Assembly (NCBI GenBank): GCA_028716045.1
Contig: JAQUQO010000001.1
Span: forward strand, 725,176 to 789,175
DNA from: Patescibacteria group bacterium
GTDB taxonomy: Bacteria > Patescibacteriota > Patescibacteriia > JAQUQO01
DNA: 64,000 nt
Reading direction: 5' to 3'
This document shows positions 58,287 through 59,200 of the stretch, in pieces. A program made the translations under genes and the position numbers. The notes under the pieces were generated by a model, which was given only the letters and a program-made list of their open reading frames with translations, searched no databases and had not been told where the DNA came from. The number at the start of each line of letters is the position of its first letter. The stretch's first letter is position 1.

Positions 58287-58320
58287 TTCAATCTTAAAGA
58301 TTGAACCAACTATTAGCGGT
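58287..58320. repeat. 34-bp palindromic repeat (copy 1) GTTGGTTCAATCTTAAAGATTGAACCAACTATTA
   Basis: Perfect 13-bp inverted arms (TTGGTTCAATCTT / AAGATTGAACCAA). A near-identical copy lies at 59167-59200. Confidence 0.75.
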
Positions 58321-58362
58321 TCACGAGCTAAATAAAAACTGTTTTCTTTTAATAAAAAACTT

Positions 58363-58833
58363 GTGTTTGATAAAAATCAGCTTTGTAAATTTCTTGTAAA
58401 AGCAAAAAAATCTACCTACGCGGCTGGTGACAAAGCTAAAAAAATTATTGAAAATGATAAATCGACGACTCTGATTTTTGAAGATGGCGATTTAAAATAT
58501 CACGATAATTACTTCGGCGGTGAGCCGTTTGGCGGTAGAGAGGTTGTATTTCTGAAGAATGAACCGATTTATATCATGGTTTACTATGGCTTGGTTGATA
58601 GGCCTGCTCCGGATTTTGAAGTAGTTTATCGATTTTTACAGAAAGCCCTGTCATTGATTCCCGAAGACCACCCTTTCCGCGGTCCGAAAGAATACGTTGA
58701 GGGTGATTTAGTCTATGCCAATAAGTACGATGGCGAAATTGACAATTTTTTTGGCGAAGAGACAATCGTGATGAGTGGAAAAAAAATTTATAAAGCTAAG
58801 TATCTTGGAGGTTTTGTTAATCAAAGAAAATAA
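58363..58833 (+). CDS. hypothetical protein (DUF-like; NYFGGEP...GREVVF motif)
   Basis: ORF in the AT-rich cassette between the two palindromic repeats. It resembles an uncharacterised domain sometimes fused to XRE regulators. That is from memory, not verified. Confidence 0.4.
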   Translation: MFDKNQLCKFLVKAKKSTYAAGDKAKKIIENDKSTTLIFEDGDLKYHDNYFGGEPFGGREVVFLKNEPIYIMVYYGLVDRPAPDFEVVYRFLQKALSLIPEDHPFRGPKEYVEGDLVYANKYDGEIDNFFGEETIVMSGKKIYKAKYLGGFVNQRK

Positions 58834-58842
58834 CAAAGGAGG

Positions 58843-59142
58843 ATGGCACCGATGGCTAAATTAAAAATGGGTCATGCACCAGAATGGAAAGATTGCCGAT
58901 TGGAAGACGTTAGGGTTAGAAAACTTAGATTGCGCAACCCGGAACAAAAGTGCGAAGTAGACAATGAAGACGCGGAAAATCCTGCCGGATTTTTGAATCC
59001 GCAATGGGTCAGGAGGGATTTACTGGGCATGCCCAAACGTTGGGAAGAAAATGGTTCAATCCTAGTTATTCCATCAACGGCGTTTGACCGAGTCGCAGAG
59101 GAATTTAGAGACTTCCAAATTAATTTTGCCGAAATTCTTTAA
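58843..59142 (+). CDS. hypothetical protein (99 aa)
   Basis: RBS AAGGAGGA. Second gene of the repeat-flanked cassette. Confidence 0.4.
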   Translation: MAPMAKLKMGHAPEWKDCRLEDVRVRKLRLRNPEQKCEVDNEDAENPAGFLNPQWVRRDLLGMPKRWEENGSILVIPSTAFDRVAEEFRDFQINFAEIL

Positions 59143-59166
59143 TGGGAAAACTTTCCCTTTCCCCTA

Positions 59167-59200
59167 CGTTGGTTCAATCTTAAAGATTGAACCAACTATT
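59167..59200. repeat. 34-bp palindromic repeat (copy 2)
   Basis: GTTGGTTCAATCTTAAAGATTGAACCAACTATTA is identical to copy 1 at 58287-58320. Confidence 0.75.

Follow-up and report, generated by a model that had tools for sequence, protein, structure and literature searches.

The region described here is a stretch of 64,000 nucleotides, referred to as the window, from a Patescibacteria group bacterium (GenBank assembly GCA_028716045.1, contig JAQUQO010000001.1, positions 725,176 to 789,175). Between recA and efp, two copies of a palindromic repeat lie on either side of two small genes. We regard these copies, called REP1 and REP2 below, as very probably repetitive extragenic palindromes (REPs) of the genome's own REP/RAYT system, where RAYT stands for REP-associated tyrosine transposase. 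Such a system is a REPtron, in the term reportedly used by Ton-Hoang, Quentin and colleagues. The features of the recA/efp interval, in positions of the window, are as follows.

56929-57957, plus strand: recA, which bounds the variable slot on the left.
58005-58247, plus strand: gene for an 80-aa protein with a hydrophobic N-terminal segment, a Gly-rich C-terminus and three Cys.
58277-58315, plus strand: REP copy 1 (REP1), CCCACATTGGTTCAATCTTAAAGATTGAACCAACTATTA, hairpin at 58283-58309 with a 13-bp stem.
58363-58833, plus strand: DUF5680 gene, 156 aa (Pfam DUF5680, E 1.4e-29).
58852-59142, plus strand: gene for a 96-aa protein (99 aa if the start is at 58843).
59163-59201, plus strand: REP copy 2 (REP2), CCTACGTTGGTTCAATCTTAAAGATTGAACCAACTATTA, hairpin at 59168-59196 with a 14-bp stem.
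59238-59264, no strand assigned: bidirectional intrinsic terminator, AAAAACATCCC-TTCTC-GGGATGTTTTT, common to the converging plus-strand genes and efp.
59278-59835, minus strand: efp, which bounds the variable slot on the right.

The repeat unit has a length of 39 nt, and its two copies (58277-58315 and 59163-59201) agree at 37 of the 39 positions (95%), including an exact shared stretch of 33 nt (58283-58315 and 59169-59201). Each unit contains a perfect hairpin of 13-14 bp, the palindrome proper spanning 27-29 nt around a single central base. REP1 and REP2 are in direct orientation, 886 bp apart, and have the loop (TTAAA) and both tails in common. The palindrome begins 36 nt past the stop codon of the 80-aa gene in REP1 and 26 nt past that of the 96-aa gene in REP2. 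The REP pattern for this genome was written as GGTTCAATC-N5-GATTGAACC. A pattern search of the 64-kb window allowing up to three mismatches gave exactly two palindrome matches, compared with none in 100 shuffles. Folded as single-stranded DNA (ssDNA), the window copies reach -11.6 and -12.9 kcal/mol (z about -6 against shuffled controls); over the REP copies folded, energies lie between -9 and -13 kcal/mol and z values between -5.3 and -6.4. A first-pass annotation of this DNA had reported two identical 34-bp palindromes. The repeat is real, but the palindrome measures 27-29 nt and the identity extends over 33 nt; the positions also needed correction, copy 1, earlier given as 58287-58320, lying five bases further left at 58282-58315, with A rather than G as its first base, and copy 2, which had been placed one position off, occupying 59168-59201.

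The contig to which the analysis assigned the window, JAQTRY010000001.1 (GCA_028711565.1), also encodes a transposase that carries this palindrome at both ends of its gene. The 166-aa protein P0048 is a RAYT-type Y1 HUH tyrosine transposase encoded at 447407-447907 of this contig. The window sits at about 748-761 kb of JAQTRY010000001.1 and thus about 300 kb from the P0048 gene. Against the NCBIfam model NF047646 (REP-associated tyrosine transposase), P0048 scores 97.7 bits and passes the cutoff of 80, while its 15.1 bits against the IS200 model are below the cutoff of 55. The closest solved relative is TnpA-REP of E. coli (PDB 4ER8, E 4.6e-7), and the catalytic motifs of both proteins align, with NHIHLI opposite EHMHCI (HUH) and YIEQNPV opposite YIYINPV (Tyr). 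The gene is bracketed by the REP palindrome, with TGGTTCAATCTTACAGATTGAACCA about 30 nt before the start and GGTTCAATCTGCAAGATTGAACCA 5 nt past the stop. The copies at this locus (L123, in its own coordinates) are the following.

2946-2972: copy upstream of the RAYT gene.
3507-3531: copy downstream of the RAYT gene.
2070: third copy, with one mismatch, 3' of gyrB and 0.9 kb upstream of the RAYT gene.

These three copies differ from the window pair, whose members resemble each other more. A tblastn search with the RAYT against the window gave no match.

P0048 was found as a homologue (61% identical) of a Y1 transposase that adjoins the palindrome in a Nitrospirota contig (L067). There, one palindrome copy lies immediately upstream of a 175-aa ORF (open reading frame) with HUH and Tyr motifs, and homologues of this transposase are annotated as REP-associated tyrosine transposase or RayT. 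The RAYT gene of L067 shows the same palindrome-flanked layout as L123. A RAYT gene with palindromes on both sides and a further copy nearby, as in L123, has the REPtron layout known from other RAYTs (PMC6006769). Two further observations were made in L067 (780-908, 1312-2036). A doublet of about 130 nt keeps the first ~60 nt and the last ~30 nt of the RAYT gene between its hairpins; it is an internal-deletion derivative of the RAYT gene, resembling a miniature inverted-repeat transposable element (MITE) or a REP doublet forming a hairpin (REPIN). In addition, the downstream hairpin of the L067 RAYT gene is interrupted by an insert of about 130 nt.

One genome per species was scanned for the core TGGTTCAATC-N5-GATTGAACCA, and at least 120 stretches matched. 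Among the matches listed, the core occurs in about 70 genomes of, by record titles, at least seven bacterial groups, namely Chloroflexota, Planctomycetota (anammox), Desulfobacterota (Smithella, Syntrophales), Nitrospirota, Patescibacteria (Kuenenbacteria), Cloacimonadota and an actinobacterium, with up to 10 core-carrying contigs per genome. In this same set of matches the copies are extragenic, 9 of 125 lying inside crude ORFs compared with about 92 of 120 random positions, and no protein family consistently adjoins the palindrome, the largest clusters of neighbours being generic tetratricopeptide repeat proteins and histidine kinases. The contexts of the copies (18 convergent, 12 divergent, 55 tandem) are near random intergenic proportions, with no strong preference for 3' ends. 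Where copies lie 1-3 kb apart in other genomes, they enclose ordinary housekeeping-type ORFs, as judged by translation rather than by family search.

The centre of the element is variable. Next to the fixed core, four bases on each side pair with one another in 70-80% of copies by way of compensatory changes (for example AGAT/ATCT, GAGAG/CTCTC and GGC/GCC; GT/AC in the window copies). The covariation score of the outer stem is 0.119 (126 copies), compared with 0.078 for shuffles, of which 0 in 500 reach the observed score, and 0.036-0.068 for slid partners. Extragenic, covarying and dispersed, and with no recurrent neighbour family, the element behaves as a repetitive extragenic palindrome. 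A conserved doublet form of about 130 nt occurs in Brocadiaceae and related genomes (L034, L038, L072, L083, L118 and others). The two hairpins of the Brocadiaceae doublet have differing inner stems (…AATCG TCCA CGATT… and …AATCT ACA AGATT…) and a self-complementary spacer. Two viral contigs carry the core; phages are not an obvious carrier of it. Rfam returned nothing at or near the palindromes in the window (E up to 10) or in 18 related loci (gathering threshold), and a literature search by the palindrome sequence string gave primer and viral matches only.

Related RAYT genes in Paceibacterota and Jettenia are flanked by variant palindromes of the form GGTTC-R-N4-loop3-N4'-Y-GAACC. In Paceibacterota (L124) the flanking palindrome CGGTTCGGGGT-NNN-ACCCCGAACCG is located at 2933-2957 and 3530-3554, and in Jettenia (L205) GGGTTCAGGTT-NNN-AACCTGAACCC is located at about 2460-2490 and 3005-3030. 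The Jettenia RAYT locus had been considered as a carrier of the same palindrome and was rejected, the variant form being present instead. Within the RAYT clade the outer GGTTC/GAACC is constant, and the inner 4-5 bp of the stem are swapped. This is how co-evolving pairs of enzyme and hairpin would be expected to look. The fixed outer part with its changing inner stem offers a natural series of cognate pairs for studies of hairpin reading by Y1 enzymes.

The window palindromes are therefore read, with good confidence, as elements of the resident REP/RAYT system, because the same contig encodes a RAYT flanked by the same palindrome and because the family is extragenic and multi-copy. The first-pass annotation had treated the pair as the boundary of a delivered cassette, a view that would be weakened if the palindrome were a common intergenic element in this genome; it is a dispersed intergenic element, with three further copies about 300 kb away, and the boundary view is weakened accordingly. 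By analogy with TnpA-REP of E. coli and with IS200/IS605 elements, the RAYT would bind the REP when it is folded as a hairpin on ssDNA, for example at the replication fork. It would then cut and rejoin beside the hairpin foot, seeding new copies in intergenic DNA. At the present locus, one REP would have been duplicated recently and locally into neighbouring gene-end positions of the variable recA/efp slot. The loop and tails that the window pair has in common, unlike the copies near the RAYT gene, suggest that one window copy was probably made recently from the other. The bracketing of the DUF5680 and 96-aa genes could then be coincidental, in a slot that already held a REP, and we read the pair as not being a dedicated cassette-delivery site. 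The earlier wording "MITE-bounded" holds in so far as the palindromes are mobile-element DNA, but the pair is no general cassette boundary. Possible consequences for the host are that a 3' REP hairpin could stabilise the upstream mRNA, and that 39-nt direct repeats 886 bp apart could promote loss of both enclosed genes.

Several points weigh against the assignment to a REP/RAYT system. The Pfam Y1_Tnp score of P0048 is slightly under the cutoff (21.8 versus 23 bits). The 5' guide tetranucleotide of classical REPs, GT[AG]G (or CGTC), is absent beside the hairpin foot; at this place the window copies have ACAT and ACGT, the L123 copies CCGT and AAAA, and most Chloroflexota copies AGAT. Atypical RAYT classes that lack GT[AG]G have been described (PMC6006769). 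The five copies recorded come from about 70 kb of sequence (the 64-kb window and the 6.5-kb RAYT locus) in a genome of 812 kb. Finally, two near-identical copies occupy adjacent intergenic spaces, with none elsewhere in the 64 kb. This clustering is above random scatter, and it would also be expected from REP-mediated delivery of a cassette.

Comparison with known systems places the element closest to REPs in layout and sets it apart in some details. The REP/BIME (bacterial interspersed mosaic element) and TnpA-REP system of E. coli (PDB 4ER8; PMC3479197, PMC6006769) likewise has a single RAYT gene flanked by a scattered extragenic palindrome, a hairpin with about 13-15 bp and a loop of 3 nt and, in the enzyme, HUH and Tyr motifs that align with those of P0048. 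The E. coli hairpin typically has a bulge, however, whereas the palindrome here is perfect and is without the 5' GT[AG]G guide. Furthermore, the host here is a member of the Patescibacteria with a main contig of 0.8-0.9 Mb, and the REP core is common to many phyla. The REPIN-RAYT systems of Pseudomonas fluorescens (PMC3116915, PMC5581495) are alike in having non-autonomous palindromes replicated by a single-copy RAYT. Doublets exist in the present family as well (Brocadiaceae, Nitrospirota), but the window copies are direct singlets 886 bp apart and not an inverted doublet. With IS200/IS605 elements (IS608, ISDra2), whose hairpins are read as ssDNA by a Y1 transposase, the locus shares two similar subterminal hairpins on one strand that enclose a DNA segment and would be read likewise, and the internal-deletion derivative beside the transposase gene of L067 resembles the palindrome-associated derivatives of that family. 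Distinct left and right ends are found in IS200/IS605, whereas the window hairpins carry identical tails and the enzyme fits the RAYT model and not the IS200 model. An IS200/IS605 insertion sequence at the locus itself was rejected, as neither tnpA nor tnpB lies between the hairpins, where the DUF5680 gene and the gene of the family-less 96-aa protein are found.

The slot between recA and efp was compared in distant relatives and in one relative with 86% RecA identity, the genes of the related loci being crude ORF calls. The gene order is conserved (a rodZ-like gene, recA, then the converging efp, an epmA-like gene, rpsR and ssb), and the recA-efp interval varies as follows.

L137: about 110 nt, one terminator only.
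L138: about 360 nt.
L142: about 1.5 kb, with other ORFs.
L201 (closest, RecA 86%): a degenerate REP 15 nt after recA, then a gene for a 188-aa membrane protein.

The inserted-module idea of the first-pass annotation is thus borne out in its lineage-specific part, the DNA between recA and efp varying among relatives; and where empty sites had been proposed as a check, L137 provides one, with recA and efp about 110 nt apart and the terminator alone between them. The degenerate REP of L201 (4171-4241), TGGTTCAA-CTA-GTTCAATCCATAAGATTGAACCGG, shows an apparent internal duplication of 9 nt and occupies the same slot, at a position that differs from those of the window copies. With up to two mismatches allowed, about 600 kb of further Patescibacteria loci, L201 excepted, contained no copy. 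No remnant of the L201 188-aa gene was found in the window past a weak N-terminal match, and a search of Joint Genome Institute (JGI) metagenomes for close relatives of the host gave none that was close, the best Efp match being 51% identical.

The contents of the slot agree in part with the earlier description. Two ORFs do lie between the repeats, although for the second, given before as 99 aa, the ATG at 58852 (96 aa) is favoured by the position of a GGAGG and by the public annotation. The small Gly/Cys-rich membrane peptide gene noted upstream is likewise confirmed as the called 80-aa gene, with its hydrophobic N-terminus, Gly-rich tail and three Cys. This gene is within the AT-rich tract and outside the REP pair, and the N-terminal part of its product shows weak similarity to the N-terminus of the 188-aa protein in the same slot of L201. 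Of the family searches proposed earlier for the two enclosed proteins, one was successful: the 156-aa protein belongs to Pfam DUF5680, but the 96-aa protein has no family in Pfam, NCBIfam, PADLOC or PHROGs.

DUF5680 proteins are unusually conserved, at 65-80% identity across Patescibacteria and with 49 invariant columns. In three other genomes the DUF5680 gene stands alone in unrelated contexts, without REPs and without the 96-aa partner. A confident AlphaFold model (pLDDT 89.4) consists mostly of beta strands plus three helices; neither a convincing structural neighbour nor a PADLOC, PHROGs or NCBIfam family match was found for this protein. The 96-aa protein has about five small homologues among 1.8 billion representatives, and its residues 53-90 match a motif of which proteins 1059 and 1308 aa long contain 5-6 repeats. 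As to composition, GC content is 0.34-0.41 over 57900-58800, compared with 0.44-0.55 in recA and a window mean of 0.435. Low GC sets in at the stop codon of recA, before REP1 is reached, and the 96-aa gene (0.40-0.44) is near the window mean. The "AT-rich cassette" of the first-pass annotation is therefore real in its low GC, but the tract is not bounded by the repeat pair and the 96-aa gene hardly takes part in it.

The alternative that survives best is that REP1, the DUF5680 gene and the 96-aa gene, with or without REP2, moved as a unit. The RAYT could have mobilised it, handling the pair of hairpins in the way that an IS200/IS605 transposase handles its left and right ends, or a circle could have integrated into a resident REP through REP x REP recombination; either route would leave a direct duplication of the REP. 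We consider such a REP-bounded cassette unlikely. The direct orientation of the window copies with their common loop and tails would fit it, as would the fact that the DUF5680/96-aa cassette is missing from all relatives examined while the closest one, L201, holds a REP in the same slot. DUF5680 genes also occur in unrelated contexts across genomes and are hence mobile, but in those genomes they have neither REPs nor the 96-aa partner. Moreover, the onset of low GC, at the recA stop, lies outside REP1, and palindrome pairs in other genomes enclose ORFs that are, by translation, of housekeeping type. A contig (L002, 912 nt) from the Logan assembly of an independent read set, SRR22315508, which equals window positions 58286-59197, runs exactly from REP to REP with a terminal overlap of 26 nt and may alternatively be read as an excised circle. 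A de Bruijn assembler, however, gives a REP-to-REP contig at any repeat of this length, and L002 is probably an assembly-graph loop at the repeat. To our knowledge, no RAYT carries cargo. REP-mediated delivery is given low weight because DUF5680 is free of REPs elsewhere, the composition anomaly is unbounded and the contig can be explained by the assembler.

A further reading, which we also think improbable, gives the two REPs a joint function, in that the RAYT or REP x REP recombination moves ordinary genes lying between REPs. If this were true, REP/RAYT would be a cassette-shuffling device in streamlined Patescibacteria, and the DUF5680 and 96-aa module would have reached the recA/efp slot in this way.

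A role at the RNA level has a still smaller probability. Here the hairpins would be kept mainly as 3' stabilisers or unconventional terminators that insulate two small units, with a mobile origin of secondary importance. Each palindrome begins 26-36 nt after a stop codon, and copies near the RAYT gene and in L201 are also close behind stop codons; it is further established that REPs in E. coli stabilise and terminate transcripts (PMC6006769). On the other hand, one copy lies upstream of the RAYT start, and the contexts of the family are, as described above, near random intergenic proportions without a strong 3'-end preference. Of the 13 or 14 base pairs in a stem, 4 or 5 are G-C, the sequence after the stem is CTATTA, and the terminator scan found no intrinsic terminator there. 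The genome's real terminators, which are the other long perfect hairpins of the window, consist of an A-tract, a GC-rich stem and a T-tract. The paired bidirectional terminators suggested by the first-pass annotation can accordingly be dismissed, as the stems are AT-rich, no T-run follows and the scan made no call on the palindromes. A canonical terminator does follow REP2, 37 nt beyond it and before efp (59238-59264). Because this terminator serves the converging genes, REP2 is unnecessary as a terminator.

Recombination sites of the attC or Xer/dif type bounding a gene cassette have next to no probability: folded single-strand sites and palindromic direct repeats around promoter-less small genes that are missing from relatives recall integron cassettes, but the earlier label "attC-like" fails on a perfect palindrome without bulges, extrahelical bases or R and L boxes, on GTTGGTT, which has a T at a purine position of the GTTRRRY core, on the lack of an array (two copies in 64 kb) and of any integrase or Xer recombinase in the gene neighbourhood (ftsK through ychF), and on a repeat that is multi-copy, dispersed and tied to a transposase gene, with no GC-skew switch here on the scale of the window. 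A dif site or replication terminus, for which a single site per replicon at a GC-skew switch and an 11-6-11 XerC/XerD layout were taken as criteria, was rejected, as cumulative GC skew falls across the window with a gene-orientation bump only at 52-60 kb and the sites are multi-copy.

With the palindromes assigned to the resident REP/RAYT system, what looked like a puzzling cassette boundary becomes ordinary, namely REP hairpins with a located transposase. REP/RAYT systems are well known, and two features of this one are atypical, the missing GT[AG]G guide and the perfect palindrome. Larger genomes account for most reported RAYT genes (PMC6006769), and a REPtron in a very small genome (main contig 0.8-0.9 Mb) is noteworthy. 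REPIN-RAYT systems are described as mostly vertically inherited (10.1101/2022.05.22.493013, PMC5581495), whereas the present REP core is found in at least seven groups by record titles. Several of the core-carrying groups also appear in the names of related RAYTs (52-87% identity). The presence of one core in about 70 genomes of at least seven groups (among the matches listed), with related RAYTs named from several of them, suggests horizontal spread of a REP/RAYT pair. The sharing of the core across phyla fits the horizontal-transfer view (PMC6006769) better than the mostly vertical view (PMC5581495; 10.1101/2022.05.22.493013). One REP sequence across phyla is unusual for REP/RAYT systems.

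Two minor observations concern short repeats in the window. Within the 96-aa ORF, at 59052-59078, TGGTTCAATC precedes a 74% match to the REP, with REP2 lying 116 nt downstream; this 10-mer match could be due to chance or could be a decayed half-REP. The terminators at 39622-39651 and 59238-59264 have the same 11-bp stem (AAAAACATCCC / GGGATGTTTTT) and different loops, and may represent a second small repeat family or a chance resemblance.

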